A stretch of DNA of 64,000 nucleotides from Candidatus Poriferihabitaceae bacterium (GTDB lineage Bacteria > Pseudomonadota > Gammaproteobacteria > Arenicellales > Poriferihabitantaceae): the NCBI GenBank assembly GCA_965204165.1, contig OZ241969.1, positions 4,088,735 through 4,152,734 of the forward strand. The letters run 5' to 3'. The stretch's first letter is position 1, and each line of letters starts with the position of its first letter. The notes under the pieces were generated by a model. That model did no database searches. It was not told where the DNA came from and was given only the letters and a program-made list of their open reading frames with translations. Shown piece after piece: positions 16,643 through 37,059 of this stretch. The position numbers and the translations under genes were made by a program.

Positions 16643-16681
16643 GACCGGATACCTGACGGATTGTGCATGTGTTCCCCTGGT

Positions 16682-17705: not shown

Positions 17706-17715
17706 GCTGCCACGC

Positions 17716-19254: not shown

Positions 19255-19433
19255 GGAAATGTCATTGCAATCCAGAGGCTCTGCTGACGGTAGCGATTCG
19301 CGGAAAGGCGGAGATTATAATCCCCATTTTCCAGTACAGAAAACGCAGGTGTGAGGTTTCCCGTGTGAAGAGGAATTCAGACGGCCGGGCAGGCGCAGGC
19401 CGAAGGATGACGCGATGAAGACATGAAGATACG

Positions 19434-20051
19434 ATGAAGATACAGTTGGTGATTTGCATGTCGGCCGCGGTGGCCATCTCCGGCTGCGTGGCGATGTCCG
19501 AGGAGGAATGCCGGTCCGCGGACTGGCGTACGGTGGGATACGAGGACGGAGCCCGGGGAATACAGCGGATCTCGGATTACCGTCAGGCCTGCGCCAAGGC
19601 CGGGATTGTTCCCGATCTCGACGCCTATCTGCACGGGCTCGACGAAGGTCTGGCGGTCTACTGCCGTCCGTCTAGGGGATACCGGACTGGACGCAGCGGG
19701 CGTCTCTACGGCGGCGTGTGTCCCGAGGATCTGGAGCCGGGGTTTCTCGACGCCTATTCCGTGGGCCGCCGGGTGCATGCGGCCGAAGGCGAAGCGGCGG
19801 GCTGGCGAAGGACCGTCGGCAACCTCGATGATCGGATTGCCGAGGCCGAGGAGGTGATAGACGAACTGGAATGGCAACTCGACAACGCGGACCTGACGAC
19901 GGAGCAGCGCAGGGCCACGAGGGCGGATATCTACGAGTTGCTGACGGAGACCATTCCGTGGCTGCGCGAAGAGCGCAGGGAGGCGATCGCATCGCTGCGG
20001 TATGCGCTGGACAGGTTCGAGGCGCTTCTGGACAACCCGTACGAACGGTAG
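19434..20051 (+). CDS. DUF2799 lipoprotein
   Basis: Lipobox AISGC followed by ECRSADWRTVGYEDGARG, typical of DUF2799. Confidence 0.7.
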   Translation: MKIQLVICMSAAVAISGCVAMSEEECRSADWRTVGYEDGARGIQRISDYRQACAKAGIVPDLDAYLHGLDEGLAVYCRPSRGYRTGRSGRLYGGVCPEDLEPGFLDAYSVGRRVHAAEGEAAGWRRTVGNLDDRIAEAEEVIDELEWQLDNADLTTEQRRATRADIYELLTETIPWLREERREAIASLRYALDRFEALLDNPYER

Positions 20052-20420
20052 CGGCGCCCGGTCCGGTTCCGCCGGCACCGGATCGTGGAAGCTGCCCGGA
20101 CCCATAGGTACATGCCCACCCGGATCGAAGGGCCCGGACCGCATTGCACGGGCACTGCAGATGTTGACATGACGTCCCGGCGGACTATATCTTTCTTGGC
20201 ATCAACTTGCAGTCCACGTTGCTGCGGCGGTGCATGTCATGTCCGGTCCCGATACGGGCCCGGTGGATTCGAAGCACGTGGTCCAGGCCGGGCCGCCTGC
20301 TTCGTAGCCTGCCCCGGCCGAACCGGCATGCTTGCCGCCTTGCCATGAATCTCCGGTTTCGATGATGCCCGGCGCACCGCTTACCCGCGAAGTCGTTCGT
20401 AACCAGCCCCGTCCGGTCCT

Positions 20421-22760
20421 GTGGAAGAAAACGGCATAACAAAAGAGTCATTCGCAAAACGGTTTGCCGAAAGGGTGCTCGCGGCCCGCTGGCGGGTCAT
20501 CCTTGTCACGCTGTTCCTGGTTGCGGTCGCTTCAAGCGGTATTGCCCGGCTCGAATTCTCCGCCAACTACCGTATCTTCTTCGACGACGATAACCCGCAG
20601 CTTCTGGCCCTGGAAGCGCTGGAGAACACATACGGGAAGAACGAAAACATCGTGTTCCTGATTGTTCCGAACGATGGTGACGCCACATCGCAAGGCGCAC
20701 TGTCGGCCGCCGCCTGGCTCACGGAATCCGCCTGGCATACACCCTATTCGAGGCGCGTCGACTCGCTCGCCAATTTCCAATTCACAACCGCTGACGGCGA
20801 CGATCTGTACGTGCGGGATCTGGTTGATCCGCAGGAACTGGCCCAGCCTGAGGCGCGGTCCCGGATCCGGGATGTCGCTTCGTCCGACCCCCGTATCGCC
20901 GGCAGCATTCTTTCCCTGAACGGGGATGTCAGCGTGGTAAACGTCACCGTTGAACTGCCGGAGGAGGGCCTGCTGGAGGCCGTGGCCGAAATTGCCGGGT
21001 TCGCCAGGTCCGTCGCCGCGGAGGCGGAAGAACGGTTTCCCGGCGTGGACCTCCGTATCGTCGGCACGGTGATGATCAACCAGACATTCCTGGAAGCATC
21101 GATCGACAGCCAGAAGGTCTTCCTGCCCGCGAGCCTGCTGCTCATGGCCCTGATCCTCGGCGTCCTCACACGGGGCTGGGCGGGGGTGGCGGCTACCGGA
21201 TTGGTCATCGTCTTTTCCATTCTCGCGTCAATGGGCCTTGGCATGTGGGCCGGGATGCCCTTTTCCCCGCCCATCTCGCCGGCGCCCACCATCGTGCTGA
21301 TGATTGTCGTGGCGAACTGCGTGCACCTGCTGGTGGCCCTGCAGCAGTGCCTGCGTGCCGGGCATACCAGACACGACGCCATCGTCGAATCCGTCAGGCT
21401 GAACCTGTACCCGGTATTCCTGGCGAGTCTCACGACGACGCTTGGATTCCTCAGCATGAACTTCTCCGAGGTGCCGCCCTATCGCCATCTCGGCAACTTC
21501 GTCGCTTTCGGCATCGCCACCTCCTTCATCCTCTCCGTCACCTTCCTGCCGGCCCTGCTTTCGCTGCTCCCGGTCCGTGCCAAGAAGGAACGCCGGTTCG
21601 GCGGAACCGCCATGGTCCGCCTGGCGGATTCCGTGCTGCGCTACAGAAAGGCGATCCTGTGGGCATGGATTCTGATCGTGCCCCTGATGCTTCTGGCCAT
21701 TCCGCGCAACGAACTGAACGATGTCCTGGTTCATTTCTTCGATGAGAGCGTCGAGTTCCGGCAGGATACGGATTTCATGGACGAGCACCTGAGCGGCAAT
21801 ACCCTGCTCGAATACTCGCTGGAAGCAACGGTCGAGGGCGGTGTCACCGACCCCCTGTTCCTGGCCGACGTCTCGAAATTCGCCGACTGGTACCGCGAGC
21901 AGCCCCCGGTACGCCACGTGGCGGTCATCACCGACACCTTCCGCCAACTCAACAAGAGCATGCACGGCGACGACCCGGCTGCCTACCGGATCCCGGAAAG
22001 CCAGGACCTGGCGGCGCAGTACCTGCTGCTGTACGAACTCTCGCTTCCCCAGGGCCTGAACCTGAACAACCAGATCGACAGGTCCCGATCGGCCACCCGC
22101 GTGACGATTTCGGCTGAAACGCTGGATACACAGGAGGTGCTTGAACTGAACGCGCGTGCCAAGGCCTGGCTGAAGGAAAACGCGGCCCATGTCGCCGACG
22201 TCAACAGCACCGGGCCCGCAGCGCTGTTCGCCTACATCGGGCAGCGCAACATCCGTGCCATGCTGGTCGGGACGCTGGTCGTGCTCCTGGCCATTTCCGC
22301 CATTCTCCTCTTTGCCCTGCGGTCGCTCAGGCTGGGCCTGATCAGCATCATCCCCAATCTGGTCCCCGCCGCGCTGGGCTTCGGCGTCTGGGGGTTGACG
22401 GTGGGACAGGTGGGCCTGTCGTTATCCGTGGTGGTTGCCATGACCGTGGGCATCGTCGTGGACGATACGGTGCACTTTCTCAGCAAGTACCGCCGTGCGC
22501 GGCGGGAATACGGCCAGAACACCGAAGAAGCGGTGCATCACGCCTTTGACACCGCCGGCCGGGCCCTTTTCACAACGACGGTGGTGCTGGTGGCCGGCTT
22601 TCTGATCTTCGCGTTCTCCCCGTTCGTTCCCACCGCGCAGGTCGGGGTGCTGACCGCGATGATCATTGGCTTTGCATTCATTGCCGACCTGACGCTTCTG
22701 CCGGCGCTGCTGACGGTGGTGGACCGGGGTCCTGCCAGGCGGAACGCGCCAGCATCCTGA
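20421..22760 (+). CDS. RND-superfamily exporter (COG1033/MMPL-HpnN-like)
   Basis: 779 aa with two 6-TM bundles, each following a large soluble loop. GTG start. Confidence 0.85.
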   Translation: MEENGITKESFAKRFAERVLAARWRVILVTLFLVAVASSGIARLEFSANYRIFFDDDNPQLLALEALENTYGKNENIVFLIVPNDGDATSQGALSAAAWLTESAWHTPYSRRVDSLANFQFTTADGDDLYVRDLVDPQELAQPEARSRIRDVASSDPRIAGSILSLNGDVSVVNVTVELPEEGLLEAVAEIAGFARSVAAEAEERFPGVDLRIVGTVMINQTFLEASIDSQKVFLPASLLLMALILGVLTRGWAGVAATGLVIVFSILASMGLGMWAGMPFSPPISPAPTIVLMIVVANCVHLLVALQQCLRAGHTRHDAIVESVRLNLYPVFLASLTTTLGFLSMNFSEVPPYRHLGNFVAFGIATSFILSVTFLPALLSLLPVRAKKERRFGGTAMVRLADSVLRYRKAILWAWILIVPLMLLAIPRNELNDVLVHFFDESVEFRQDTDFMDEHLSGNTLLEYSLEATVEGGVTDPLFLADVSKFADWYREQPPVRHVAVITDTFRQLNKSMHGDDPAAYRIPESQDLAAQYLLLYELSLPQGLNLNNQIDRSRSATRVTISAETLDTQEVLELNARAKAWLKENAAHVADVNSTGPAALFAYIGQRNIRAMLVGTLVVLLAISAILLFALRSLRLGLISIIPNLVPAALGFGVWGLTVGQVGLSLSVVVAMTVGIVVDDTVHFLSKYRRARREYGQNTEEAVHHAFDTAGRALFTTTVVLVAGFLIFAFSPFVPTAQVGVLTAMIIGFAFIADLTLLPALLTVVDRGPARRNAPAS

Positions 22761-22914: not shown

Positions 22915-23478
22915 TTGCCCGCGGTCGTGTTCAATAATCCATTTGATTCATTTCACAATACGGTTGCCGAAGCAAAGGAGGAACGCGAACAGCTCGACCG
23001 GCTGCTGACAATCTCCACGCCCCGGGAGCGTCTGCTGGTCGCCGCCATCGCCGTGATGCTGCTCATCCTCGGGACCTGGTTCTTCTATGGCAACGTGCCC
23101 CGCAGCCTTGCGCTGGACGGCGTGCTGGTCGAGCCCGGCGAAGGCCTGTCCGAGGAAAGCAGGTCCTTGCAGGCGCTCGTCTGGGTCAAGAGCGACATCG
23201 CGCCGTATATAAAGGCCGGGATACCGGCGGTGATAGAGCTGGATATGGCGGACGGAAAGGCGGACACGCTTGACGGGGAGGTCGCGGACATTTCCGCCGT
23301 ACCCCTGCAAGGAGGGCTGGCGACGCTCGAGACCGCGGTGCCGGTGTCCGTCCACCGCATCGTCGTCACGCTCGATGAAAGTCACGACCTGACTTCCCTT
23401 GTGGACGGGGAGTGCCGGATCTTCCTCGAACTTGGCAGGCAATCACCGATTGCATTGTTCCGAATGAAGCAATCGTAA
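22915..23478 (+). CDS. short HlyD-like periplasmic adaptor of the NHLP bacteriocin export system
   Basis: 187 aa. The N-terminus (EQLDRLLTISTPRERLLVAAIAVMLLILGTWFF) looks like NHLP-system HlyD proteins, but the coiled-coil hairpin appears absent. Start (TTG 22915 or GTG 22927) is uncertain. Confidence 0.65.
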   Translation: MPAVVFNNPFDSFHNTVAEAKEEREQLDRLLTISTPRERLLVAAIAVMLLILGTWFFYGNVPRSLALDGVLVEPGEGLSEESRSLQALVWVKSDIAPYIKAGIPAVIELDMADGKADTLDGEVADISAVPLQGGLATLETAVPVSVHRIVVTLDESHDLTSLVDGECRIFLELGRQSPIALFRMKQS

Positions 23479-23479
23479 G

Positions 23480-25684
23480 ATGGTCGCCTCTAAAGGGGCT
23501 GCCGGTCAGGCCGCCACAGACTCCCGGAAACGGAAGGTAGTCACCCCGGTCCTGTTGCAGATGCACGCGTCGGAATGTGGCGCAGCCTGCCTCGGCATCA
23601 TCCTGGCCCACTTCGGGCGCTGGGTGCCGCTTACCGAATTGCGCGAAAAATGCGAGGTGAGCCGCGACGGCAGCAGTGCCGCGAGCATCCTGCGCGCCTC
23701 GAGACACTACGGCCTCGAATGCAATGGATTCAGCATGCGCGCCGAGCAACTGCAAAAGCTGGAACTGCCCCTGATACTGTTCTGGCAATTCAGCCATTTC
23801 GTCGTCCTCGAGGGGTTCGACGGCCGCAACTACCATCTCAATGACCCGTCCACGGGACGACGCAGGCTTTCCGTTGAAGAATTCAACAAGGGCTACAGCG
23901 GCGTTGCACTACGGTTCAAGCTCGGCGCCGATTTCAAGCCCGGCGGCGAGCAACCCGGCCTGTTCAGGCAACTGGGCACCCTGCTCGGCGGATCATGGAA
24001 TGTGCTTGCCGGGGTGATTGCCTGCGGGTTCATGCTGACGTTGCTGGCACTCCTCGTCCCCGTATCCATCAGTGTTTTCGTGGACGACGTCCTGGAAAAC
24101 CATGGACCCTGGGGCGGACTGGTGGCGGCCCTGCTGTGCGGCGGTGTCCTGGTATACATCCTGTCCCTGCTCAAGCACCGGTTCCTGAAGCGTCTCGCAA
24201 CCCGGATTTCGGTGACCGGCTACAATCGAGGCCTGTCGCGCCTGTTGCGGTTGCCGGTGGAGTTTTTCGAGCACCGGCTGGCCGGCGACCTGACCGACCG
24301 GGTCTCGTCCATTGACAGAATCGCGAAGAATCTGACGGACCAGTTCCTCGTGCTCATGATCGACATGGCCATGAGCGTGGTGTTGCTCATCGCCATGCTC
24401 GCCTACGATATCCGGCTGACGCTGGTTGTGCTGCTGCTGGCGCTTGTGCACGGCATCCTGGCCCACTTTCTGAACGCCCACCGGGCGGTCCGAAGCCAGA
24501 CGATGAGGCGCGAACAGGGATTGCTGATCGGCCTCGGCATGCAGATGCTGAACCATGCGGACAACCTGCGCATGACGGGAGCGGATGACCGGTTTTTTTC
24601 GCGCTGGAGCGGTCAGCAGGCACGCGAACTGCAGGCGCGCCAGGCCTATTCCGAACTGGGTTCCGTCAACACCGCGCTTCCGGGCCTGATTGCCACACTT
24701 CGCAGCGCGGCGATCCTCGGCATCGGAGGCAGCATGGTCATGAGCGGGCAGATGACCCTGGGGGCGCTGGTGGGCTTCTATATCCTGGCAGAACTGTTCC
24801 TGACCCCGATCGGGCACTTCCTGGAATTCGCCGACAAGCGCCAGGCGCTCGAAACCGACCTGCAGCGGGTCGATGACATCTCCAAGGCCGCCGAAGACCC
24901 GGTCTTCAACCGCCGGAGTCCGGAATCGGACTCGATTCCCACGTTCAACGGCCGGCTCCAGCTGGCAGGCCAGCTCGAACTGCGCCATGTCACCTTCGGT
25001 TTCAACAAGAGCCGCCCGCCCCTGATCAAGGACTTCAGCCTCGTGATCAGGCCGGGACAGCGGGTTGCCGTGGTCGGTCCCAGCGGCTCCGGCAAGTCGA
25101 CCCTGGCGCGCCTGGTTTCGGGTGTCTATCAGCCCTGGTCGGGGGAAATCCTGTTCGATGGCCACCTGCGGGATGAGATACCCGAGGAAGTGCTGCGGCA
25201 GTCCATTTCCATGGTGGATCAGGAGGTCGTGCTCTTTTCCGCGTCCGTACGCGACAATATCACCCTGTGGAATCCGGCCATCCCGGATGAAGCCATTTTC
25301 ACCGCGACGCGGGATGCCCAGATCCATGACGAAATTCTGATCCGGCCCCAAGGATATGCGACCCTGGTCGAAGAGGGCGGGGCGAATTTCAGCGGCGGCC
25401 AGCGGCAACGGCTGGAAATCGCCCGCGCGCTGGTGGGCCATCCGACGGTACTCATCCTGGACGAGGCGACCAGCGCTCTCGATGCCGCGACTGAGGAATT
25501 CGTTGATGATGCCCTTCGGCGGCGCGGCGTCACCTGCCTGATCGTGGCTCACCGGCTGAGCACCGTGCGGGATTGCGATGAAATCATCGTGCTCGACAAG
25601 GGCGTTACGGTGCAGCGCGGCACGCATTCCGAGCTGATTGCGGACCGGGAAGGCACGTACTACAAGCTGGTCAAGTCGGGCTGA
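23480..25684 (+). CDS. NHLP-family bacteriocin export ABC transporter, C39 peptidase/permease/ATPase
   Basis: C39 Cys/His motifs (ECGAACLGII, HFVVLEG), 6-TM domain, Walker A GPSGSGKST, signature FSGGQRQRL. Confidence 0.9.
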   Translation: MVASKGAAGQAATDSRKRKVVTPVLLQMHASECGAACLGIILAHFGRWVPLTELREKCEVSRDGSSAASILRASRHYGLECNGFSMRAEQLQKLELPLILFWQFSHFVVLEGFDGRNYHLNDPSTGRRRLSVEEFNKGYSGVALRFKLGADFKPGGEQPGLFRQLGTLLGGSWNVLAGVIACGFMLTLLALLVPVSISVFVDDVLENHGPWGGLVAALLCGGVLVYILSLLKHRFLKRLATRISVTGYNRGLSRLLRLPVEFFEHRLAGDLTDRVSSIDRIAKNLTDQFLVLMIDMAMSVVLLIAMLAYDIRLTLVVLLLALVHGILAHFLNAHRAVRSQTMRREQGLLIGLGMQMLNHADNLRMTGADDRFFSRWSGQQARELQARQAYSELGSVNTALPGLIATLRSAAILGIGGSMVMSGQMTLGALVGFYILAELFLTPIGHFLEFADKRQALETDLQRVDDISKAAEDPVFNRRSPESDSIPTFNGRLQLAGQLELRHVTFGFNKSRPPLIKDFSLVIRPGQRVAVVGPSGSGKSTLARLVSGVYQPWSGEILFDGHLRDEIPEEVLRQSISMVDQEVVLFSASVRDNITLWNPAIPDEAIFTATRDAQIHDEILIRPQGYATLVEEGGANFSGGQRQRLEIARALVGHPTVLILDEATSALDAATEEFVDDALRRRGVTCLIVAHRLSTVRDCDEIIVLDKGVTVQRGTHSELIADREGTYYKLVKSG

Positions 25685-28629
25685 TGAAGGACGCCGGACC
25701 GCAATACACATCCATCGCAGAGCTCGCCGCAAGCTCCGGCACAGCCGTGCCCTGCGCCGGCAACCTGCCGGTCAGGCTCGACGATCCGGACAGCGTCTGG
25801 TTCATCGATCAGGGCGCCGTCAACCTGTTTCTGATCGAATTCAAGGACGGGGTGGAACAGGCGGCACCACAGCATCTGCTGCGCCGGGATTCGGGATGGT
25901 TGCTGCCGGGCGTCGCCCCGGACGTACGGGACGATGGCCAGGACACTACGCTCAGCCTGATGGCCAAGGGAATGCCGGGCACAATGCTGAAACGGCTGCC
26001 GGCGTCCCTGCTGTCCCAGGCCGATCCGACGGAACTGGCGGAGCAGGCCGACACCTGGCTGAACGCCATCACCGGCACGCTGTCGCGCTTTGCGAGCCCC
26101 CTTCCGCGTCCGAACGCCTTGGCCGAACCCGGTCTGGCGCAAACCCTTTCTCCCCCCTGCACGCTGTCCACACGGCACCGCGTGGTATGGGTCAGCAAAC
26201 CGTCGCACGGCGCAGTCCTGTTCATGGATATCGTCGACCAGGCGGAACTTGCCGAGGCCGGCGGTGCAGGCGAAACCATGCTTCCGCTGACACGGACCAG
26301 CTGGATCACCCTGTTCGAAGAGACGACACTGACGGGCCAGTCTACCGAAACATTGGCGCAGCAAGGCACGCTGCTGCCGGCGCTCGCCACCTTCCACGCG
26401 GTCGCCTTCACCCTGGAACGCCTTAACCGCCGCCTGGCCGTGGTCGATGACGTGAATCTCGAGCGCGCGCGGACAACCAGCCGCCGCACGGCCGAAAAGG
26501 TTGCCAGGCAACGGCTTTTCAATATCTATGATCTGCCCATTGACCGGGATGCCAGTGTCGAGGACACGGCTCTGGAAGATGCCCTGCAGGTCATCGGCCG
26601 CCATGAAGGCATCGATTTCAGGATTCCGGCGCGCACGGGACCTGCCGATATTCCGATCGGTCTCGTGGACGTTCTCGACGCATCGGGCGTACGCGCCCGG
26701 CGCGTGCGTTTCAAGGACGAGGGAACCTGGTGGCGCGGGGACAGCAACGCGATGCTGGTATTCCGCCCGGAAGACGGGCAGCCCGTGGCGTTGCTTCCGG
26801 GAATGTTCGGGCGCTATCGGGAATACGACCCGGCCACCAAGCGCACTACGCGGATTACCGCGGACCGCGCCAGCGCGCTTGGAGAGGAAGCCTGGATGTT
26901 CTACCGGCCATTGCCGTCGGGGAACGTGAATCCGGCAGACCTGCTGAAAATCGCCCTGCACGGGTCGGCCGCGGATCTGGCGCGGCTGGTGATTGCCGGG
27001 CTCCCGGGCGGCCTGATCAAGCTCCTGCCGGCACTTGCGCTCGGATTCGTTGCGCATGAAGTTACTGCGGGCGGAAACGTCGAGGCGCTCTATGCCGTGG
27101 CCGTGGCGCTGGCGGGATTCGGCCTGCTCGGCGCCCTGCTGCATCTTCTTCAGGGCACTGCGATGATGCGGCTCGAGGCGCGCGCAGCGTCACGGGTCGA
27201 AGCCGCCTTCTGGGACCGCCTCATGCGTCTTCCGCCAAGCATCCTGCACCGCCAGCCGGCAGGCGACCTGGCCATGTCGGGAATGACCTTCCAGAATCTT
27301 CGCGACGGCCTGCAGGGAGTCGTTGCCGACAGCTTCCTGTCGATCATTTTCCTGCTTCCGACGTTCGGCGTCATCTTCTTCTACGATGCCACCCTCGGGA
27401 GCATCGCCCTCGCCTTCAGCCTGGCGTCCCTGCTGATCATCGCGGTCCTCGGATGGCGCCAGATTTTGCCGTATGGCCGGATGATCAGTGCGGCGCGGCG
27501 CGTAGCCGGCCAGCTGTTCCAGATCGTGGGCGGCATTACCAAGCTGCGCGTGGAAAATGCGGAAGGGTCGGCTTTCGCCATCTGGGCGCGGGGCTACCGC
27601 GAGCAGAAACGCGCGGAACTCGAACTGGGCGCGCTCGAGGGGCATTCCCGGGCATTTGGCGCCGCGCTCCCCTTTCTCGCCGGCGGGGTACTGCTTTTTG
27701 CGGTGGTGTCGGTGGGAGAACGGAACGTCCCGGTCGGCGATTTTCTTGTCGTCTACACGGTCTTCATCGTATTCCAGACCGCCATCGCCCGGCTCGGCGA
27801 GTCCTTCGGCACCGTTGCCGCCATGCTGCCGGCGTTCGAACAGATGCGCCCGCTACTCACCGCGGTTCCCGAGGCCGAGGTCGAAGGAGAGCCGGTTGAA
27901 TATCTGGGCGGCGACATCCTGTTCGACCACATTTCCTTCCGCTATGATCCCGACGGTCCGCTGATTCTCGACGGGGTCACGATCCGCGCCCGCCCCGGCG
28001 AATTCATCGCGATTGCCGGCGAGTCCGGTGCCGGCAAGAGCACCCTATTCCGGCTCGCACTCGGCATTGACCGGCCAACCGCCGGTGCGGTGTATTACGA
28101 CGGCCGTGACCTCAGGCACCTGAATCTGAAGCAGGTGCGCCGGAAAATCGGCGCAGTGCCGCAATCGGTGGGGCTCCATCCCCAGGACCTCTGGGACAAC
28201 CTGGTCAGTCACCACGACGAAGTGGCGAACGAGGAAGTATGGACCGCTGCCCGGGTCGCCGAAGTGGAAGACGAGATCAGGAGCATGCCCATGGGCATGA
28301 TGACCATGGTCGGCGCCAGCGGATCTGTCCTGTCGGGCGGCGAGAGCCAGCGCGTCACGATCGCCCGATCGGTGATCGGCAACCCGCGCATCATGCTGTT
28401 CGACGAGGCCACCAACTGGCTGGACAACGAAAGCCAGGCCAAGGTAATGCGGAACCTCACAACCCTGACAGCCACCCGGATGGTTATCGCCCACCGCCTG
28501 TCCACGCTGGAACAGGCTGACCGCATCTACGTGCTGCAGGCCGGAAAAGTCGTACAGAGCGGCTCCTTCGACGAACTCATGGCGGTCGACGGGGTATTCA
28601 AAGAACTGGTCAAGAGACAGGTCGCCTGA
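25684..28629 (+). CDS. NHLP-family bacteriocin export ABC transporter, permease/ATPase with N-terminal cNMP-binding-like domain
   Basis: 981 aa. N-terminal ~300 aa beta-rich domain, then TMD, Walker A GESGAGKST and LSGGESQRV. Start overlaps the upstream stop (TGATG). Confidence 0.85.
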   Translation: MKDAGPQYTSIAELAASSGTAVPCAGNLPVRLDDPDSVWFIDQGAVNLFLIEFKDGVEQAAPQHLLRRDSGWLLPGVAPDVRDDGQDTTLSLMAKGMPGTMLKRLPASLLSQADPTELAEQADTWLNAITGTLSRFASPLPRPNALAEPGLAQTLSPPCTLSTRHRVVWVSKPSHGAVLFMDIVDQAELAEAGGAGETMLPLTRTSWITLFEETTLTGQSTETLAQQGTLLPALATFHAVAFTLERLNRRLAVVDDVNLERARTTSRRTAEKVARQRLFNIYDLPIDRDASVEDTALEDALQVIGRHEGIDFRIPARTGPADIPIGLVDVLDASGVRARRVRFKDEGTWWRGDSNAMLVFRPEDGQPVALLPGMFGRYREYDPATKRTTRITADRASALGEEAWMFYRPLPSGNVNPADLLKIALHGSAADLARLVIAGLPGGLIKLLPALALGFVAHEVTAGGNVEALYAVAVALAGFGLLGALLHLLQGTAMMRLEARAASRVEAAFWDRLMRLPPSILHRQPAGDLAMSGMTFQNLRDGLQGVVADSFLSIIFLLPTFGVIFFYDATLGSIALAFSLASLLIIAVLGWRQILPYGRMISAARRVAGQLFQIVGGITKLRVENAEGSAFAIWARGYREQKRAELELGALEGHSRAFGAALPFLAGGVLLFAVVSVGERNVPVGDFLVVYTVFIVFQTAIARLGESFGTVAAMLPAFEQMRPLLTAVPEAEVEGEPVEYLGGDILFDHISFRYDPDGPLILDGVTIRARPGEFIAIAGESGAGKSTLFRLALGIDRPTAGAVYYDGRDLRHLNLKQVRRKIGAVPQSVGLHPQDLWDNLVSHHDEVANEEVWTAARVAEVEDEIRSMPMGMMTMVGASGSVLSGGESQRVTIARSVIGNPRIMLFDEATNWLDNESQAKVMRNLTTLTATRMVIAHRLSTLEQADRIYVLQAGKVVQSGSFDELMAVDGVFKELVKRQVA

Positions 28630-28722: not shown

Positions 28723-30024
28723 ATGAAGAAACCTGCTGATGCAACCGATCGCATTGCTTCAAGAGCCGCCGAGGACAGCGACTTTCGCGCACGCCTTGTC
28801 ACGAATCCAAGGGAAACGATCGCAAGGGAATTCGGCGTTTCCCTGGACGAAGACCATGAGATACACGTGCACGAAGAAACCTATTCCGCCACGCACGTGG
28901 TGCTCCCGCCGCGCAGCAAATTCAGCGAGGCCGAGCGGAAGGAGGCGAAAGCCGGCGCAACGTCACTGGCGTTTCTTCGCAGGACGCTCCACGACCCCGC
29001 ACCGCCCATGCGCCCGCCCGCCCCCGAACGGGTGCGCTCCCGCAAGCACGCCGCCACCCCGAAGTCACTTGCCAAAGAGGGCAGGGAATGCATCCTCCGT
29101 GGCCTGGCCTTCCTGGAATCCGTGGTCGACGAATCCGGGGCCTGGCACTGCATCAGGTTCAATATCGCCGATCCGGACATTCCGCGGCATTTCGAAAAGC
29201 CCCCGTTCATTTCGGCCCATTGCGTGCTTGCCCTGGAAAGCAGCGATGAAGCCCGGGCCAAGGCCCTGTGCGACGCCACCAGGAAGTATCTCGGCAGCAC
29301 CATCGAGTATCCCGGATTGTGGCGCTACTACCGCCATCTTCCCCAGGATCTTGACAGCACCGCCGTCTGTTCGCTTGTCATCGGGACCCACCCCTGGATC
29401 TTTCTGGGAAGGAATGTCCGGCGAATACTGGCGAACCGCGACGACAACGGCTGTTTCATGACCTGGATGCTGGATGAAGCCGAACCCGATGTCGTGTCCA
29501 GCTTCCGTATCGAAGCCGATCCTGTGGTCAACGCGAATGTCATCGCCTACCTCGGCGACCACCCCGAAACCAGGGACGCCCAACGGTGGCTGGAGGCCCT
29601 GATCACCGAGGACCGGCTCAAGGACTCGTCCAAGTGGTATCCCGACACGGTCACGATCTACTATGCAACAACCCGTGCCATGATGCGCGCCGAACCCGCC
29701 CTCGACAGTCTGCGGCCGATACTTGCGGATCGAATCCTTGACCTGGGCGGCGGGAAGGGGGAATTCGGCAACCTCCTCCAGACCGCACAGGCGGTCTCGG
29801 CACTCTATAATATCGACCGCCTTGAAAGTATCGACGTGAAACGTCAGGTGGAAAGGATCATCGATTCGCAGCGTGAAGACGGCAGCTGGCCGGAACTGCT
29901 CGCGTTTGGCGACCAATCGCTGAGATGGGGCGCGTTCGGACAGATCGGGCACGGCTCTGAATCCGTGACCACCGCATTTTGCATCGAGGCCCTGGAGCGT
30001 CTCGTCGAGACCCTGGAAGCCTGA
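28723..30024 (+). CDS. NHLP leader-like domain fused to a squalene-hopene-cyclase/prenyltransferase-like alpha/alpha toroid domain
   Basis: Residues 1-78 align without gaps to the precursor at 31476-31727, including Ala-Gly at 77-78. The rest carries VVDESGAW, NRDDNGCF and SQREDGSW repeats, and GLWRYYRHLPQDLDSTAV resembles GGW..DxDDTA. Confidence 0.7.
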   Translation: MKKPADATDRIASRAAEDSDFRARLVTNPRETIAREFGVSLDEDHEIHVHEETYSATHVVLPPRSKFSEAERKEAKAGATSLAFLRRTLHDPAPPMRPPAPERVRSRKHAATPKSLAKEGRECILRGLAFLESVVDESGAWHCIRFNIADPDIPRHFEKPPFISAHCVLALESSDEARAKALCDATRKYLGSTIEYPGLWRYYRHLPQDLDSTAVCSLVIGTHPWIFLGRNVRRILANRDDNGCFMTWMLDEAEPDVVSSFRIEADPVVNANVIAYLGDHPETRDAQRWLEALITEDRLKDSSKWYPDTVTIYYATTRAMMRAEPALDSLRPILADRILDLGGGKGEFGNLLQTAQAVSALYNIDRLESIDVKRQVERIIDSQREDGSWPELLAFGDQSLRWGAFGQIGHGSESVTTAFCIEALERLVETLEA

Positions 30025-30235: not shown

Positions 30236-31354
30236 ATGGATATTGACGAGGCAATCATTCTTACCCAGGACCGTCTTGCCGAAGAGGGCGGCAGCATGGG
30301 TGAACTGCTCGGACAGTTCCGGAACCGGGTCTCGCCGATTCTGATCGGAGACCCCGAATGGAAGCGCATCCTCGAATGTGCCGGGAAACTTCCCATCACA
30401 ATGGGCGCCCTTCCATTCGGCTTTGAACTGCCGCTTCATCTGCACAGCCCGCAAGCGGATTTCGGAGTCTCCATGGCGAGCGGGACCAGGACAGCGGATT
30501 TCTTCCATGAACGCGCCCGGACCGACACGAAGGATGAAACCGCCAGGGCGGTCTCGCGGCTGTTCAGGCAAATGGATTCCGGGCACTCTCCCCTGCGTGA
30601 CGTCGTCGGCCGCAAGCTGATGCTTGAATATGACATCGGTTCGGCGCGGGACGGGGAACGTTCGCTTCCGGGCATGTTCCTGAGACCCGGAGAACGCCCG
30701 ATCATCGGCGCCGGCGGCCAGGCGGATGAGGTCGGCATGGTGGTCGACGCGCTCGTTTCCTGCCTGGGCTGGGAAATGAATGATGACCAGCGGAATAATG
30801 TCCAGCGGGTTTACCTAGCGCAGCCGGAGGATACGCGCATGGATTCGTTTGGTGTTTTCCCGTCCCGCTCACGGTCAATTCGCCTGGCGATCATGGGCTT
30901 CAAGACGCCGCAGGAAACATGCGGCTATCTTGAACAGACGGGTTGGCCGGGCCAGATCTCGGCTGTCGATTCCGTGCTCGCACGCTTCCGGGAACGGGTG
31001 AAGATCGTCCGGACCGGGCTGAATATTGATGTTCGGGATGAGGGGGTCGGCCCGACGCTCGGCCTGACCCTCATTGTCAAGCAGAGATATACGAAGGATT
31101 CACGGTACTGGATCGACGGCCTGACCGACTGGGACCCGTTACTGAAGGCCTTGAGCCACGAGGACCTTGTGGCTCAGGAGAAACTGACGGCGCTTGCCGA
31201 CTGGGTTTCGAAACCGACAATTCTGTTTGCGAAGTCCGGGCGCTTTGTCCTATTGCGCGGCATTCACCACATCAAGCTGGTGATCACCGAAAACCGGCTG
31301 GGAAAAGCCAAGGCCTACGTATTTATGGTGCTTTCCGGGGCGGTCCCGGAATAG
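30236..31354 (+). CDS. hypothetical protein (372 aa), possible ABBA-barrel fold
   Basis: GAGGA RBS 6 nt before ATG 30236. Ten short alternating beta-like segments in five pairs (FGFELPLH/ADFGVSMA ... HHIKLVITE/AKAYVFMV). No family was recognised with certainty. Confidence 0.6.
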   Translation: MDIDEAIILTQDRLAEEGGSMGELLGQFRNRVSPILIGDPEWKRILECAGKLPITMGALPFGFELPLHLHSPQADFGVSMASGTRTADFFHERARTDTKDETARAVSRLFRQMDSGHSPLRDVVGRKLMLEYDIGSARDGERSLPGMFLRPGERPIIGAGGQADEVGMVVDALVSCLGWEMNDDQRNNVQRVYLAQPEDTRMDSFGVFPSRSRSIRLAIMGFKTPQETCGYLEQTGWPGQISAVDSVLARFRERVKIVRTGLNIDVRDEGVGPTLGLTLIVKQRYTKDSRYWIDGLTDWDPLLKALSHEDLVAQEKLTALADWVSKPTILFAKSGRFVLLRGIHHIKLVITENRLGKAKAYVFMVLSGAVPE

Positions 31355-31475: not shown

Positions 31476-31727
31476 TTACCAGCAGCAGCAAAGACCGGCT
31501 GAGATGGCCTCAAGTTGCTCTTCGGTAATGTTCGGATCCGGCGGCAGGGCGAGATGCACCGTCTGCATGTCGCTCTCATGGATTATGATGTTCATCGAAT
31601 CGGGAATCGTGACCCCCAGTTCGCCACTGATCGTAGTCTTCGGATCGGCAAGCAACTGTTGCCTGAATTCCGTGTCCAGAGCAGACTTCTCGACAATCTG
31701 CTTCAGCATTTCATCACCGCTTCTCAT
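31476..31727 (-). CDS. NHLP (nitrile hydratase leader peptide)-type RiPP precursor, predicted core LCCCW
   Basis: 83 aa: ...DTEFRQQLLADPKTTISGELGVTIPDSMNIIIHESDMQTVHLALPPDPNITEEQLEAISAG-LCCCW-stop. AAGGGG RBS 7 nt upstream of the ATG. Confidence 0.85.
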   Translation of the reverse strand: MRSGDEMLKQIVEKSALDTEFRQQLLADPKTTISGELGVTIPDSMNIIIHESDMQTVHLALPPDPNITEEQLEAISAGLCCCW

Positions 31728-31825: not shown

Positions 31826-33444
31826 CAGCAATTCCCGCTAAGGGTTAGCTCCATTGTGTCAGGGAGTGTGATCCGCAGGAGGTTGTGGTTTTAAAGGGAT
31901 CGGGGCGCAGCGGTCGTTACAGCCACCACTGGGGCTGTAGAACTCATCGGGTCGGTAAACGCTGAAGAATCGACCTGAACACCCGCCGGTCACGGCGTGA
32001 TTCAGGGCGGTTCAGGCAGCGCGGGATTGTTTTTGTACCCCCGCGCAATGACCTGATACAGTTTCTCCCAACTGTCTATCAGGAACAGGCTGAACAGGCC
32101 CCTCATCTTGCGCCACAGCGCGGCGCGGCTGTACATGGCCTGGTGTGCCGCATTGAATACGGCACAGCAGCGCAACTGGATCTGGTCCACCAGAAACGCC
32201 AGCATCATCAGGTGCATCAGCACCGTCGACAGGTGCTTGTTGCCGTGACCATAATTGTGTTCCAGGCCGTAACCCTGGTTCTTCAGCGTGTTGAAGGTTT
32301 CGTTCTCTATCTTCCAGCGGGCCCGGCCGGCCCGCATCAACTCCATCAGGTTCGATTCGTCGATCGGGATATCGGTGACCCAGCAAAAGCGCTGCACCTT
32401 GCCCCCGGGACGGTGCTCCCGGTACTCAAGGAAGTTCACCTCCAGATCAAAGTGGTCGTCGTTCAACGGCACCCGGTTCAGATACCGGAAGCGATGCACT
32501 ACCCCCTGCCCGTCCCGGCACTCATGTTCCGGAACGCCCCGGGTCTTCGACACCCAGTCGTACAGAAACCGGTGGTCCCCTTCCTTCGCACCCAGCACAT
32601 AGCGCATGTCCAGTGACTCCAGCAGCCGGATGTGCGGACCGTTCGAGGCCAGGCCATCTTCAACCACCAGCAACCGCAAATGCGGATGGTTGCGACGGAC
32701 ACGCTTCAGCAGCCGCCTTGCGGCATTCCGCTCACAGTCGTTCTTGCCGGATCCGTCCCCCTTCAGGATCGGTTCTGGCATCAGGGGGATCACCTCGCGG
32801 CAGTCCGGATGCACCAGCACCGCACCGAGCAACTGGTGATAGTACGTCACCCGACCGTCACGATGATGCTTGCTGCAGCAGTGCGCGCAATGCACCTTCT
32901 GCGAGGAGAACAGCCCGGTGCCGTCCACCGACAGCACATAGCGGCCGTCCAGCACCTCGAAACCCTCCAGACCCTTGCCCCGCTGCAGCAGCGCAAACAG
33001 CCGCTTGTATACCGGCTCGAACACCCCCGGGTCCAATTCGTCCAGCCGTTCCCTCATGTACGTGTCGCTCGGCGCCTGCGCCACCCCGTACAGATGCTTC
33101 AGATTGTGCCGCACCGCTTCCTCGGACTGCGACCGCTCGAACTGCAGCAGCGATGGATATTTCAGACCGAACATCGCCAGCGCCGACATCATGACGTCCG
33201 ACAACGGGAACTTGCGGGTGCGCTTCGTGTCCGGAATCTCCTCGAAACTCGACCGGATCGACTGCAGCAATCCCTGTGCGCTCAAGTGTTTGCGATTTGA
33301 TGGTTCACGCATCCAATTTCACCTGGTTCATGAAATTGGAACTGTATGATACCAGAATTCCTGAAAAACTTTACGAAAAAGTTTTTTCCGTATCTCTCTA
33401 TCACCTTGTATTTGCTTGACTTTTTAAACCAGCGGGAATTGCTG
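31826..33444 (-). mobile_element. IS element (IS4-like DDE transposase), 1619 bp, with 9-bp target site duplication
   Basis: Terminal inverted repeats CAGCAATTCCCGCT (31826-31839) and AGCGGGAATTGCTG (33431-33444). Flanked by direct GACGCCTGA at 31817-31825 and 33445-33453. Confidence 0.85.
32002..33312 (-). CDS. DDE transposase (IS4-like)
   Basis: 436 aa with HCAHCCSKHHRDG, LVVEDGLASNGPHI and RARWKIENETFNTLK (YREK-type region). Paralog at 60613-61926. Confidence 0.9.
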   Translation of the reverse strand: MREPSNRKHLSAQGLLQSIRSSFEEIPDTKRTRKFPLSDVMMSALAMFGLKYPSLLQFERSQSEEAVRHNLKHLYGVAQAPSDTYMRERLDELDPGVFEPVYKRLFALLQRGKGLEGFEVLDGRYVLSVDGTGLFSSQKVHCAHCCSKHHRDGRVTYYHQLLGAVLVHPDCREVIPLMPEPILKGDGSGKNDCERNAARRLLKRVRRNHPHLRLLVVEDGLASNGPHIRLLESLDMRYVLGAKEGDHRFLYDWVSKTRGVPEHECRDGQGVVHRFRYLNRVPLNDDHFDLEVNFLEYREHRPGGKVQRFCWVTDIPIDESNLMELMRAGRARWKIENETFNTLKNQGYGLEHNYGHGNKHLSTVLMHLMMLAFLVDQIQLRCCAVFNAAHQAMYSRAALWRKMRGLFSLFLIDSWEKLYQVIARGYKNNPALPEPP

Positions 33445-33682: not shown

Positions 33683-34585
33683 ATGTCCACAACGGGGCCT
33701 GTGCGGATGTTCCCTGACCACGAAACCGACGCAAACAGGTATGTCCGCCAGGGCCGGCTCAAGGGCTTGCCAAACCGCCGGGGCGCCCGGTTGAATTCCG
33801 TGCACAGTGTCTTGGCGCTGGCATGCTTGTGCCTGCCAGGTGCACTTGCCCTTGCCGAGGAAGAAACGCCGGAAGACAAGGGCCTGAGGATCGCGCGCGA
33901 AGCAAGCGCCCTTAACGACGGCTTCGGGGATTACACCGCCGGCATGCGGATGGTGCTGCGCGACCGGCAGGGCCGGGAGAGTGTCCGTCAGATGCGCTTC
34001 AAGGTGCTGGAGATGCAGGAGGATGGCGACCGGAGCTTGTTCGTGTTCGACCAGCCACGGGACGTGCAGGGCACCGCCCTCCTGACGCACGCCCACATCA
34101 ACACCCAGGACGACCAGTGGCTGTATCTGCCGGCCCTGAAAAGGGTGAAGCGCATCAACGCCTCGTCACGTTCAGGGTCATTCATGGGGAGCGAGTTTTC
34201 CTACGAAGACATGAGCTCTTCGGAGGTGGAAGAGTACACCCATAGGTTTCTTCGCGACGAGCCATGCGGGGCGCTCACCTGTACGGTGATCGAGCAGGTC
34301 CCCCTGGACAGGAAATCCGGATACAGCCGCAAGGTCGTTTGGCAGGATACCGGCGAACTCCGAACCTGGAAGATGGAGCTTTACGACCGCAAGGACTCGC
34401 ATCTGAAAACTCTCACGTTCGAGAACTACCAGCAATACCTGGACCAGTACTGGCGGGCGGGAGAACAAACGATGGTTAACCACCTGACCGGTGCGAGCAC
34501 GGTGCTGCAATGGGCCGATTTCCGGTTTCGCACCGGACTTGATGAAAGCGAATTCACCAAACCGGCTCTGCGACGCGTGCGCTGA
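33683..34585 (+). CDS. outer-membrane lipoprotein-sorting (LolA-like) protein, usual partner of COG1033 RND exporters
   Basis: DDQWLYLPALKRVKRINASSRSGSFMGSEFSYEDM is typical of the LolA_like family. The signal peptide (SVLALACLCLPGALALA) suggests a later start, for example TTG 33791. Confidence 0.8.
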   Translation: MSTTGPVRMFPDHETDANRYVRQGRLKGLPNRRGARLNSVHSVLALACLCLPGALALAEEETPEDKGLRIAREASALNDGFGDYTAGMRMVLRDRQGRESVRQMRFKVLEMQEDGDRSLFVFDQPRDVQGTALLTHAHINTQDDQWLYLPALKRVKRINASSRSGSFMGSEFSYEDMSSSEVEEYTHRFLRDEPCGALTCTVIEQVPLDRKSGYSRKVVWQDTGELRTWKMELYDRKDSHLKTLTFENYQQYLDQYWRAGEQTMVNHLTGASTVLQWADFRFRTGLDESEFTKPALRRVR

Positions 34586-35060: not shown

Positions 35061-35092
35061 TCAGGGTGATCCATCAGGGTGATCCATCAGGG
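35061..35092. repeat. 13-bp tandem duplication (TCAGGGTGATCCA x2.5) spanning the halogenase start codon
   Basis: Units at 35061-35073 and 35074-35086, plus a partial third at 35087-35092. Each full unit carries a GTG; only 35079 is in frame. Confidence 0.8.
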
Positions 35093-36353
35093 CAGCAAAT
35101 CCTTGCAGAAGATCGCGGTTGTGGGACGCGGAACCGCGGGGTCTCTGGCTGCCGCCAGCGTAACGCGCCTTCTCTCCGGCCGGGACTACGAGCTGCACCA
35201 CATCTATGACTCGCGTATCCCGGTCATCGGCGTGGGTGAAGGCAGCTGGCCGAGCCTGGTTCAGCAGTTGCAGCACCTGACGGATCTGCCCCACGATACC
35301 GTCCAGCAGCGTCTCAAAGGAACTCGCAAGTACGGGGTCGCATTCGAGGGATGGGGGGTGCGCGACCAGGATTTCACCCACTACTTCATGCCGGTAAAGG
35401 AGTCCTACGCCTATCACCTGTCCGCCGACCTGATGGGGGACCTGCTGCACGAAAGCACGCACGCGCGCCACATCGACGCGAAAGTGCTCGGGATCACCAG
35501 GGTGGACGGCGGCGCGGAAGTGGAATTCGAGGGCCTGGCGCCGGAACGCTACGACCTGGTCTTCGATGCCCGCGGATTTCCCAGGGAACTCCAGCCCGAA
35601 CAGCACATCGACATTTCGTTCATTCCCACCAATACGGCCGTCATCCGCCGCTGCCCGGCAATCTTCGGGGAGGATCGGGGCGGACCGGTCCTGCAACATA
35701 CCTATACCCGCGCGGTTGCGCGTCCGCACGGCTGGATTTTCGTCATTCCGCTTCAAGTACACACATCCTACGGGTACATCTTCAACCGCGATGTATCCGG
35801 CCTTGACGAAGTCGAGTCGGATTTCGATGCCTTCCTTGCAACCGATGGCGTACCGGAATTCGAGCAGCGCGCCGTCATCCAGTTCCCCAATTTCGTCCAT
35901 CGGCAGATGTACGACGGCGCGGTGGCCCGCATCGGCAATGCGGCGGCCTTCATGGAGCCCCTCGAGGCAACGGCCATCGTGTCCGCCCAGTTGCAGATCG
36001 GGATGGTCCTCCAAACGCGTCTCAACCGCCCAATCGAGCATATTGAACGCGACGCACCGGTTGTCAACCGGTTCCTCGTCAACAACATGCTCTGTTACGG
36101 CCTGTTCGTCGGCTGGCACTACTGCCTTGGCTCAAAGTACGACAGCGGGTTCTGGTGCCATGCCCGTGACCACGTCTGGCCACGGCACCGCAAGGCGGCG
36201 GCTCCCGAGTCCGTGGACTGCGACGCACTCCGCAAGTTCGACGGCATGTTCGAACTGATGCGCCAGCCGGAAATCGGCGAGGCGGACTGGAACCGGATGT
36301 GCGCAGTCCCCCTCACAAGCTATGACCAGATGTCCCGCGGTCTTGGCTGCTGA
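35079..36353 (+). CDS. FAD-dependent tryptophan-halogenase-family protein
   Basis: GxGxxG (VVGRGTAGSLAA), IGVGEGSWPSL, GWIFVIPL (WxWxIP-like) and FMEPLEATAI (F.EPLES-like). Confidence 0.8.
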   Translation: MIHQGSKSLQKIAVVGRGTAGSLAAASVTRLLSGRDYELHHIYDSRIPVIGVGEGSWPSLVQQLQHLTDLPHDTVQQRLKGTRKYGVAFEGWGVRDQDFTHYFMPVKESYAYHLSADLMGDLLHESTHARHIDAKVLGITRVDGGAEVEFEGLAPERYDLVFDARGFPRELQPEQHIDISFIPTNTAVIRRCPAIFGEDRGGPVLQHTYTRAVARPHGWIFVIPLQVHTSYGYIFNRDVSGLDEVESDFDAFLATDGVPEFEQRAVIQFPNFVHRQMYDGAVARIGNAAAFMEPLEATAIVSAQLQIGMVLQTRLNRPIEHIERDAPVVNRFLVNNMLCYGLFVGWHYCLGSKYDSGFWCHARDHVWPRHRKAAAPESVDCDALRKFDGMFELMRQPEIGEADWNRMCAVPLTSYDQMSRGLGC

Positions 36354-36409: not shown

Positions 36410-36808
36410 TCAGGCCAGGGTGTCCACCAGTCGCGCTTCCGTAATTCTGCGGTCCCGGGTCAGCAGCGTCGCGCCGAGCACCCGGGCCGTGGCAACCAGG
36501 ATGCGGTCTGCCGGGTCACGATGGAAGGAATCGGGCAACGAGGCCAACTCGGCCGCGATCGCCGGTGATATTCCATTTCGCCGCACCAGTGGAGGTGCCG
36601 CCAGCTTCCCCAGCCACTCCCGCAGGGGAATCGTGAGGCGAATCCGGCCAAGGCTGTGCAGCATGGCCACTTCCCACAGGGAGATATCGGAGATCAGCAA
36701 CGGCGAATCCGCATCGGCGGCTGCAATCACTTCCTGCTGGTCACGGGACAGCCGGCCCCGGTCTTCATGCCACCAGAGCAGAATGTGTGTGTCGAGCAGG
36801 GCCTTCAC
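36410..36808 (-). CDS. vapC: type II toxin VapC (PIN domain)
   Basis: 132 aa (LLDTHILLW..., acidic PIN residues). Overlaps the antitoxin stop by 4 nt. Confidence 0.85.
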   Translation of the reverse strand: MKALLDTHILLWWHEDRGRLSRDQQEVIAAADADSPLLISDISLWEVAMLHSLGRIRLTIPLREWLGKLAAPPLVRRNGISPAIAAELASLPDSFHRDPADRILVATARVLGATLLTRDRRITEARLVDTLA

Positions 36809-37059
36809 GGCTTCAGGACGTCCCAGTATTCTTCCGGCAACACCGGCTTCACAACATCCCCGACCAGTTCGACCGTCCCGGCCAGCTCGGCCTGGGGAAA
36901 CGCCCTGTCTTCCCCGGTAGGACGAACCAGCACCGCAACGGGTCTCCCGCGCTTCAGAATGACCACCCGTTCCCCCGTCTCATGGACGCGGTCAAGGATG
37001 GCAAGGCAGCGGGCCTTGAAGTCGGATGCATTGATGGTTGTCATATGACTAGTATCCAT
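36805..37059 (-). CDS. type II antitoxin (Phd/YefM-like)
   Basis: MTTINASDFKARCLAILDRVHETGERVVILKRGRPVAVL. The start may be 37044 rather than 37059. Palindromes GTCATATGAC (37040-37049) and ATGACTGGTCAT (37058-37069) lie at the 5' end. Confidence 0.75.
   Translation of the reverse strand: MDTSHMTTINASDFKARCLAILDRVHETGERVVILKRGRPVAVLVRPTGEDRAFPQAELAGTVELVGDVVKPVLPEEYWDVLKP

Follow-up and report, generated by a model that had tools for sequence, protein, structure and literature searches.

The DNA analysed here is a stretch of 64,000 nucleotides (the window) from a Candidatus Poriferihabitaceae bacterium (contig OZ241969.1, positions 4,088,735 to 4,152,734, forward strand), and the subject of the analysis is a fusion protein of 433 amino acids (aa), designated T433 and encoded at 28723–30024 on the + strand (ATG start; stop codon at 30022–30024), in which a nitrile-hydratase-like leader (NHLP) domain is joined to an (alpha/alpha) toroid. 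The locus on the 64-kb window is the published srp (sponge-derived RiPP proteusin) cluster, RiPP standing for ribosomally synthesised and post-translationally modified peptide, because an LCCCW core on an NHLP leader, a YcaO protein and a Trp brominase occur together in it. Checked against the published descriptions, these three components are an 83-aa SrpE-type NHLP precursor (31476–31727, − strand; TIGR03793, 66.8 bits), in which ...EAISAG is followed by LCCCW and the core matches that of the published srp; a fused E1-like/YcaO cyclodehydratase resembling SrpC (39754–42054, +; Pfam YcaO, E 2.3e-95; TIGR03604 and TIGR03882); and a flavin-dependent Trp halogenase resembling SrpI (35079–36353, +; Pfam Trp_halogenase, E 7.7e-43). 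T433 lies directly downstream of the gene for a second ATP-binding cassette (ABC) exporter subunit (NHLM ABC2; 25684–28629, +; TIGR03797, E 7e-200) and is followed by a gene for U387, a 372-aa protein (30236–31354, +) that resembles ABBA-type aromatic prenyltransferases in its AlphaFold 2 model and in Foldseek searches. According to the published srp chemistry, SrpC turns three Cys residues into thiazolines and SrpI, which depends on the leader, adds bromine to C6 of the C-terminal Trp; the final product and its role are still termed cryptic in the literature, and few biosynthetic loci of sponge microbiomes are as widely shared and as highly transcribed as this cluster.

The N-terminal part of T433 (residues 1–78; 28723–28956, +) is, as judged from sequence comparisons, a genuine NHLP-type domain. 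A BLASTP alignment pairs residues 1–78 of T433 with residues 1–78 of the 83-aa precursor without gaps (23/78 identities, 29%; E 3e-14), as the preliminary description of this DNA had proposed, and a hand count on this alignment likewise agrees with the 17 identities reported there for the 46-residue DxxFR...LPP block (D18 to P63). The hidden Markov model (HMM) TIGR03793, representing NHLP leaders, matches residues 6–66 of T433 (E 6.3e-13, 48.4 bits, model positions 4–63 of 77); this score is just under the curated NCBIfam cutoff of 50.9 bits, and the match of the true precursor (66.8 bits) covers model positions 4–77. The Pfam model NHase_alpha matches with 32.1 bits, which exceeds its gathering score (27.2), and TIGR03793 is matched at E ≤ 1e-5 by 32 of 32 members of the T433 family. 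The best PDB sequence matches of residues 9–78 are nitrile hydratase alpha chains and the NHLP structure 8tb1, solved by nuclear magnetic resonance (E 1.5e-4), and the AlphaFold 2 model predicts helices alpha1–3, two short strands and a helix at residues 69–76 for this domain. The short C-terminal core of proteusin precursors is missing in T433; instead, the NHLP domain is followed by a 21-residue conserved segment, a linker and a 313-residue enzyme domain.

The segment directly after Gly78 (residues 79–99; 28957–29019, +) reads A-A-S-L-E-F-L-R-K-T-L-H-D-P-A-P-P-x-R-P-P, and S81, L85, T88, P92, A93 and P94 are invariant among 52 T433 orthologues. Conservation, calculated as the mean pairwise identity among these 52 proteins, is 63% for residues 1–63, 62% for residues 64–78, 76% for residues 79–99, 37% for residues 100–120 and 75% for the toroid. 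The NHLP domain is under purifying selection, because its mean identity is 63% compared with 37% in the linker. The latter (residues 100–120; 29020–29082, +) is variable and probably flexible, with a predicted local distance difference test (pLDDT) value of about 57 at residues 101–110.

The same 52 orthologues offer little support for the conserved cleavage site that had been suggested for T433. The Ala-Gly pair at residues 77–78 is indeed present at the same position in T433 (KEAKAG) and in the precursor (AISAG), but it is not a feature of the family: all orthologues have G78, preceded at residue 77 by Thr in 37, Ala in 10 and Ser in 3. Counting G78 as position −1, position −7 is Arg in 49/52 proteins, position −4 is Ala in 51/52, position −2 is Thr in 37/52 and position −12 (residue 67) is L, F or Y; SrpE carries Leu, Ile and Ala at −7, −4 and −2, respectively. 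C39 proteases hold the residues at −4, −7 and −12 in a hydrophobic groove, and substrates with a charged residue at −7 or −4 are not processed (PMC6363468); for the protease LahT, replacement of Leu-7 by Lys or Asp blocks processing, as do charged replacements of Val-4 (PMC6363468). T433 does not carry a double-Gly-type motif with hydrophobic residues at −4, −7 and −12, and the cleavage motif lies beyond the part of TIGR03793 that T433 matches, which ends at position 63 of the 77-position model. Residues 79–99 are among the best-conserved parts of the protein (76%, as against 75% for the enzyme domain) and are therefore not as expected of a scissile junction. Cleavage of T433 at G78 does probably not take place. 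The Leu-x4-Leu leader motif, needed for binding by the RiPP recognition element (RRE) of the YcaO protein MprC and by SrpI, is degenerate in T433 (L/F67...R72), which makes it doubtful that the enzyme is recruited by the same leader-recognition element as the substrate, as had also been considered.

The C-terminal part of T433 (residues 121–433; 29083–30021, +) can be assigned with high confidence to the class II terpene cyclase type, both by fold and by motif. The AlphaFold 2 model, built on 95 sequences, has pLDDT values above 90 across most of residues 113–433 and represents a single-domain (alpha/alpha) toroid. In a Foldseek search against the PDB, the first 37 places are all taken by class II terpene cyclases (E 2.5e-11 to 2.5e-4), led by the cyclase domain of the drimenol synthase AsDMS (9m7d, E 2.5e-11); further matches include the monodomain cyclases 8pak, 8paj, 6ij1 and MstE, as well as drimenyl diphosphate synthase, squalene-hopene cyclase (SHC) and oxidosqualene cyclase. 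A profile of the T433 family searched against the PDB finds the drimenol synthase 9mhs_B with E 4.5e-23 and coverage of the whole domain. No LanC entries occur among the 50 best Foldseek matches, the beta subunit of geranylgeranyltransferase (GGTase-beta) appears at rank 50 alone (E 1.9e-3 versus 2.5e-11 for the terpene cyclases), and the match of Pfam Prenyltrans is weak (E 0.011). A LanC-like fold and a protein-prenyltransferase-like fold (farnesyltransferase or GGTase-beta) were ruled out on the basis of this ranking and this weak match, and the earlier assignment of the C-terminal domain as SHC-like is borne out.

The acid motif D209-L-D211-S-T213 (29347–29361, +), situated within the stretch GLWRYYRHLPQDLDSTAVCSLV (residues 198–219), aligns exactly with the catalytic DLDTT of AsDMS, in accordance with the resemblance to the class II acid motif seen earlier. 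The family stretch LPxDLD(D/S)T falls on FPDDLDTTS of AsDMS, and the entry of the D333N mutant shows DDLNTTS in the same columns; since the mutated Asp of AsDMS occupies the column of D211, the latter is the predicted general acid of T433. Among 95 family members, D209 and D211 are nearly invariant, and Q383, G387 and W389 are invariant. The Ser that replaces the last Asp of the motif appears to be a tolerated variant and not a lesion, because stand-alone toroid relatives carry DLDDT or DLDSL. The idea that this Ser marks a dead enzyme was rejected on these grounds and on account of the DLDTT of drimenol synthase; active DxDTT enzymes exist. All three QW-like motifs listed in the preliminary description are present (VVDESGAW, residues 134–141; NRDDNGCF, 238–245; SQREDGSW, 382–389), but only SQREDGSW, with the invariant residues of Q383-R-E-D-G387-S-W389 (29869–29889, +), is a true QW motif that aligns with the QW repeats of SHC, and the other two are no more than QW-like.

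The true start of U387 is M16 of a 387-aa open reading frame (ORF), at position 30236, which gives the protein of 372 aa. No Pfam or NCBIfam family (Trp_DMAT, CloQ/NphB and others) matched U387. Its AlphaFold 2 model, based on a shallow alignment, contains the five alpha-alpha-beta-beta repeats of a prenyltransferase barrel (pLDDT 79), and all 50 of the 50 best PDB fold matches found with Foldseek are ABBA prenyltransferases (E from 2.4e-5, TM score ~0.5); they include PriB, EpzP, DMATS1, IptA, 5-/6-DMATS, CloQ, NphB and CymD, many of them Trp or indole prenyltransferases. U387 thus models as an ABBA-type aromatic prenyltransferase. An exhaustive search with the toroid domain revealed proteins of 650–700 aa in other organisms where the toroid family forms the C-terminal part. 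The U387 HMM matches the N-terminal halves of two such fusions (P0238, E 2.4e-11; P0263, E 1.6e-5), and a profile–profile comparison with hhalign of U387 and the N-terminal domains of seven fusions gives a probability of 97.4% (E 1e-11, 288 columns). The N-terminal domain of one of the seven, P0178, has a weak match to Pfam Trp_DMAT (E 1.9e-4, below the cutoff); the BLASTP comparison of U387 with P0178 is not significant, and the link is visible only at the HMM and profile–profile level. Because the two families are fused to each other elsewhere, a functional coupling of the T433 toroid with U387 is quite probable.

The fusion of an NHLP domain to a toroid is widespread. A protein search found more than 1,100 T433 homologues, nearly always encoded beside the same genes; the 120 best ones listed are nearly all full-length (428–451 aa, 72–100% identity). 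A genome scan collected 53 loci with T433 orthologues, several of them on closed long-read chromosomes, from metagenome-assembled genomes labelled as Gammaproteobacteria, Alphaproteobacteria, Binatia, Bryobacterales, Nitrospirales, Nitrospinota, Gemmatimonadota and others. The orthologues at these loci (L001–L053) are 61–95% identical across at least eight phyla, and the order of the surrounding genes is shuffled while the gene set is stable. Identity over so many phyla, combined with the shuffled gene order, implies that the cluster as a whole has been transferred extensively and horizontally between uncultured bacteria that appear to be associated with sponges. In the 37 loci that span 19 kb or more, genes were counted up to a distance of 10 kb from T433: U387 is present in 36, the LCCCW-type precursor in 33, the YcaO gene in 30, a desaturase-like gene in 28 and the halogenase in 27; T433 stands directly after ABC2 in 39 of 41 loci, and 41 of 43 recovered precursors have the LCCCW core. 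This distribution practically rules out that the fusion is an artefact of assembly or of a frameshift between a precursor gene and the enzyme gene behind it: the architecture, with a length of 428–440 aa, recurs in more than 1,100 proteins of at least eight phyla, whose assemblies are independent of each other and include closed long-read chromosomes, and the junction (residues 79–99) is highly conserved at the protein level. The separate NHLP precursor gene just upstream of a stand-alone toroid gene in loci L055 and L058 is what might favour an artefact, and the probability of the latter is close to nil.

Relatives of the toroid without a fused NHLP domain (300–345 aa, 40–46% identity) are encoded in clusters of other types. 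Loci L054, L055, L057 and L058 each combine NHLP precursors, U387-like genes and a stand-alone toroid: L054 contains an NHLP precursor, two U387-like genes, two P450s and an exporter of the peptidase-containing ABC transporter (PCAT) type; L055 contains three precursors, a YcaO gene and a U387-like gene; and L058 contains several precursors alternating with U387-like genes and a JmjC-type protein. The precursors of these four loci have short cores, and 7 of the 12 complete ones end in Trp (FTSVGGPIW, FTTGNNPLW, YSFNEPW, ...YNINW, ...ITSDW, ...GGSNW and ...LGLRW). The NHLP domain of T433 is 36–42% identical to all twelve leaders of the stand-alone-toroid clusters, compared with 29% to SrpE. The proposal that the fused leader is simply a paralogue of the cluster's own precursor is contradicted by these values, and a recent duplication of SrpE was ruled out because the T433 domain is nearer to the leaders of the other clusters. 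The gene next upstream of the toroid gene in L055 and L058 is a precursor gene of the same orientation, an arrangement that offers a simple route to the fusion. The simplest history suggested by these comparisons is that an upstream precursor was joined to a downstream cyclase, and that the leader body was kept while the cleavage and RRE motifs decayed.

The L058 region at 7600–21300 holds at least six NHLP precursor genes, four U387-like genes, a toroid with DLDSL (433 aa, with a C-terminal extension) and the JmjC-type protein, and this array looks like a separate, undescribed proteusin family.

Starting from what is established here, namely the domain identities, the alignment of the catalytic motif, the conservation, the linkage to U387, precursor and exporters, and the fusions of prenyltransferase-like and toroid domains, T433 may be proposed to be a core tailoring enzyme of the srp pathway, a single-domain, protonation-type class II cyclase with D211 as the general acid, which would be paired with U387. 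In this scheme, SrpE (LCCCW) would be heterocyclised by the YcaO protein and brominated on its C-terminal Trp, both steps being published; U387 would put a prenyl chain on the C-terminal Trp of the SrpE-derived peptide; and the T433 toroid would protonate this chain by means of D211 and cyclise it. The NHLP domain would be a leader retained uncleaved and in cis, not a cleavable leader or a secretion signal; its ancestor would be the leader of a precursor whose gene closely preceded that of a stand-alone cyclase, and the domain might either occupy or activate a leader-docking surface of the cyclase and prenyltransferase or dock the cyclase to a partner or to the exporter machinery. A possible reason for the cyclase to have its own leader is that the leader of SrpE would be tuned to the YcaO protein and the brominase. 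A precedent exists in the NHLP precursor PalX, whose conserved C-terminal Trp receives a prenyl group from PalQ (PMC10853753); it supports, without proving, prenylation of the terminal Trp and subsequent processing of the prenyl group by the toroid. The whole package, i.e., a cyclase acting on a prenylated C-terminal Trp, with its own uncleaved leader domain and U387 as a partner, is given a probability of about 0.42. The further-reaching idea that the srp pathway yields a terpenoid–peptide hybrid, where the (bromo)Trp of the thiazoline peptide is prenylated and the chain is cyclised by an enzyme that naturally carries its leader in cis, is speculative and rather unlikely.

Several points weigh against this proposal. 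The published srp work examined describes thiazolines and 6-bromo-Trp alone and no prenylated or cyclised srp product, and no gene for a prenyl-diphosphate synthase was seen among the scanned ORFs of the window. The model of U387 is of moderate quality (pLDDT 79, two of five models above 70, TM score ~0.5, 9–15% identity to its fold matches, no match to a sequence family). The stand-alone toroids evidently function without a fused NHLP domain, the toroid could act on a free rather than a peptide-borne isoprenoid, and the invariant G78 still permits cleavage or a structural role.

The placement of T433 directly downstream of two NHLM ABC exporter genes in 39/41 loci, together with the invariant G78, the small residue at position 77 (T, A or S), the hydrophobic residue kept at −12 (L, F or Y67) and the TolC-type and HlyD-like genes of the cluster, would also fit a secreted enzyme, in which the NHLP domain serves as a double-glycine-type export signal, the C39 transporter cuts after G78 and the cyclase acts in the periplasm or outside the cell, where it would be helped by the fact that class II cyclisation needs neither ATP nor a cofactor. 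The folded toroid of 355 aa is far larger than the known substrates of PCATs, and the N-terminus that cleavage would create (the highly conserved residues 79–99, followed by the variable linker) resembles a part of a domain and not a junction. The Arg at −7 and the Ala at −4 do not suit a protease of this kind, considering that LahT rejects a charged residue at −7 or −4 (PMC6363468); Thr at −2 in 71% of the orthologues differs from the GG, GA or GS of known motifs, and the NHLP model itself ceases to match before the cleavage site, at position 63/77. Export of the cyclase thus has only a slim chance of being correct. Alternatively, the NHLP domain might bind the recognition sites of SrpE (the YcaO RRE, SrpI and C39), thereby tethering the cyclase as on a scaffold or competing with the substrate as a decoy and regulator. 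The conserved body of the domain and its homology to the SrpE leader agree with this, as do the fusions of cyclase and prenyltransferase-like proteins in other taxa, which show a tendency toward physical complexes, and the finding that NHLPs are folded domains with different surfaces bound by different enzymes (PMC12455567). Such binding is, however, improbable, given that the Leu-x4-Leu positions recognised by the YcaO RRE (MprC) and by SrpI are occupied by L/F67...R72 in T433, that the T433 domain is more distant from SrpE (29%) than from the leaders of other cluster types (36–42%), and that it would be strange for more than 1,000 clusters to conserve, in stoichiometric amounts, a protein that competes with the substrate.

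The proposal of a peptide-directed cyclase has also to be compared with a lipid-directed or non-catalytic role of the toroid, which might cyclise or bind a free isoprenoid or lipid, or be a binding or immunity protein, the NHLP domain merely localising it to the peptide machinery. Genes for an MMPL/sterol-sensing-type transporter of the resistance-nodulation-division (RND) superfamily, a LolA-like protein and a fatty-acid-desaturase-like protein travel with the cluster, the nearest solved relatives use free farnesyl diphosphate or small aromatic prenyl compounds, and the third acidic residue of the motif is Ser instead of Asp. On the other hand, the toroid stays with NHLP precursors and the prenyltransferase-like family even in loci that lack the RND, LolA and desaturase genes (L054, L055 and L058), the catalytic Asp and the QW residues are invariant, and DxD(T/S)T is the motif of a characterised drimenol synthase in the PDB; a role of this kind seems unlikely.

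Both the srp cluster and the fold families discussed here are already known. The srp cluster with SrpE, SrpC and SrpI (PMC10286304; PMC10858898; bioRxiv 10.1101/2023.06.09.544420) shares with the present locus the precursor, the YcaO protein, the Trp halogenase, the NHLM-type exporters and the occurrence in many uncultured phyla; as published, it is described in terms of thiazolines and Trp-6 bromination, and an NHLP–cyclase fusion or a prenyltransferase-like gene is not mentioned, the founding paper (Nguyen et al., JACS 2021) being set aside. The comparison set for the toroid consists of the AsDMS cyclase domain (9mhs, 9m7d), AstC, MstE (6sbb), the Cystobacter/Archangium "SHC" (8pak, 8paj) and the Actinoplanes prenylcyclase (6ij1). 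Like these single-domain or beta-domain class II cyclases, T433 has one toroid of ~310–350 aa with DxD(D/T/S)T at the same position and a QW motif; unlike T433, to which they are 16–21% identical, they act on free farnesyl diphosphate or small prenylated aromatics and have neither a RiPP leader nor a RiPP cluster, and the fusion partner in AsDMS and AstC is a HAD phosphatase, not an NHLP domain as in T433. The NHLP leaders (TIGR03793; 8tb1 of MprE7) are homologous to residues 6–78 of T433 and have the same helix-helix-helix-strand-strand-helix order, but T433 differs from them in having a 355-aa enzyme instead of a short core, degenerate cleavage and Leu-x4-Leu motifs and a score under the cutoff. 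In the PalX/PalQ and ComX/ComQ systems, Trp is prenylated in a ribosomal peptide, and the cores of the toroid clusters, like that of PalX, mostly end in Trp; PalQ and ComQ adopt the isoprenoid-synthase (class I) fold and work without a separate cyclase, whereas U387 is predicted to be an ABBA barrel. Laboratory fusions of leaders to LctM or LynD are constitutively active RiPP enzymes, in which, as in T433, the leader and the enzyme are in one chain with a flexible linker; borosins join an enzyme to a core, not a leader to an enzyme.

In the literature searched, again leaving the founding 2021 srp paper aside, no description was found of a RiPP cluster with an enzyme of the class II terpene cyclase type, of an enzyme carrying a fused NHLP leader or of an ABBA-like srp partner. 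With the same reservation, T433 and U387 are near-universal srp genes that have no assigned function in the published srp work examined, and their assignment as terpene-cyclase-like and prenyltransferase-like proteins provides a concrete chemical hypothesis for the missing srp steps, which can be tested by mass spectrometry. The assignment also points beyond srp, to a broader and so far undescribed set of NHLP clusters that carry the same pair of enzymes and have cores ending in Trp. If the proposed role is true, T433 would be the first terpene cyclase in RiPP maturation, found in more than 1,000 sponge-symbiont genomes from at least eight phyla, and a natural case of a folded leader domain placed on an enzyme rather than on a substrate. 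The NHLP–enzyme fusion also bears on leader recognition in proteusins and on the engineering of leader-independent RiPP enzymes.

The remaining genes of the cluster begin with an MMPL/RND-type transporter containing a sterol-sensing-like domain (20421–22760, +; Pfam MMPL and Sterol-sensing; 20/37 loci). It is followed by a short HlyD-like protein of 187 aa (22915–23478, +; NHLM HlyD model TIGR03794), only the first ~50 residues of which match the 421-position model, and the same length is kept in 31/37 loci. The C39-peptidase ABC exporter (NHLM ABC1; 23480–25684, +; TIGR03796, 857 bits; Pfam Peptidase_C39) precedes ABC2, where residues 1 to ~290 (25684–26560, +) form an N-terminal extension that lies outside every ABC family model; this extension might be a domain that binds leaders without being catalytic, and the NHLP domain of T433 might dock there. 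A LolA-like protein (33683–34585, +) and a TolC homologue (42903–44288, +) also travel with the cluster, and their presence together with the MMPL/RND transporter hints at the handling of a lipophilic product.

The desaturase-like gene counted above encodes a 799-aa protein (37212–39611, +; 28/37 loci) with a fatty-acid-desaturase-like membrane domain (Pfam FA_desaturase, E 1.8e-27) and a C-terminal region resembling the adenylyltransferase GlnE (E 5.9e-6), for which the published srp work examined gives no role. A DDE transposase (32002–33312, −) and a PIN/Phd toxin–antitoxin pair (36410–37059, −) are located inside the cluster of this genome, with T433, U387 and the precursor on one side and the desaturase-like gene and the YcaO gene on the other; in many other loci, the latter two come straight after T433. 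Second precursors with SrpE-like leaders occur in two loci: at L037:19664–19918 (+), ...AISAG is followed by MCCCGI, with no Trp in the core, and at L025:18567–18857 (+) it is followed by WCCCGN, where Trp takes the first core position.

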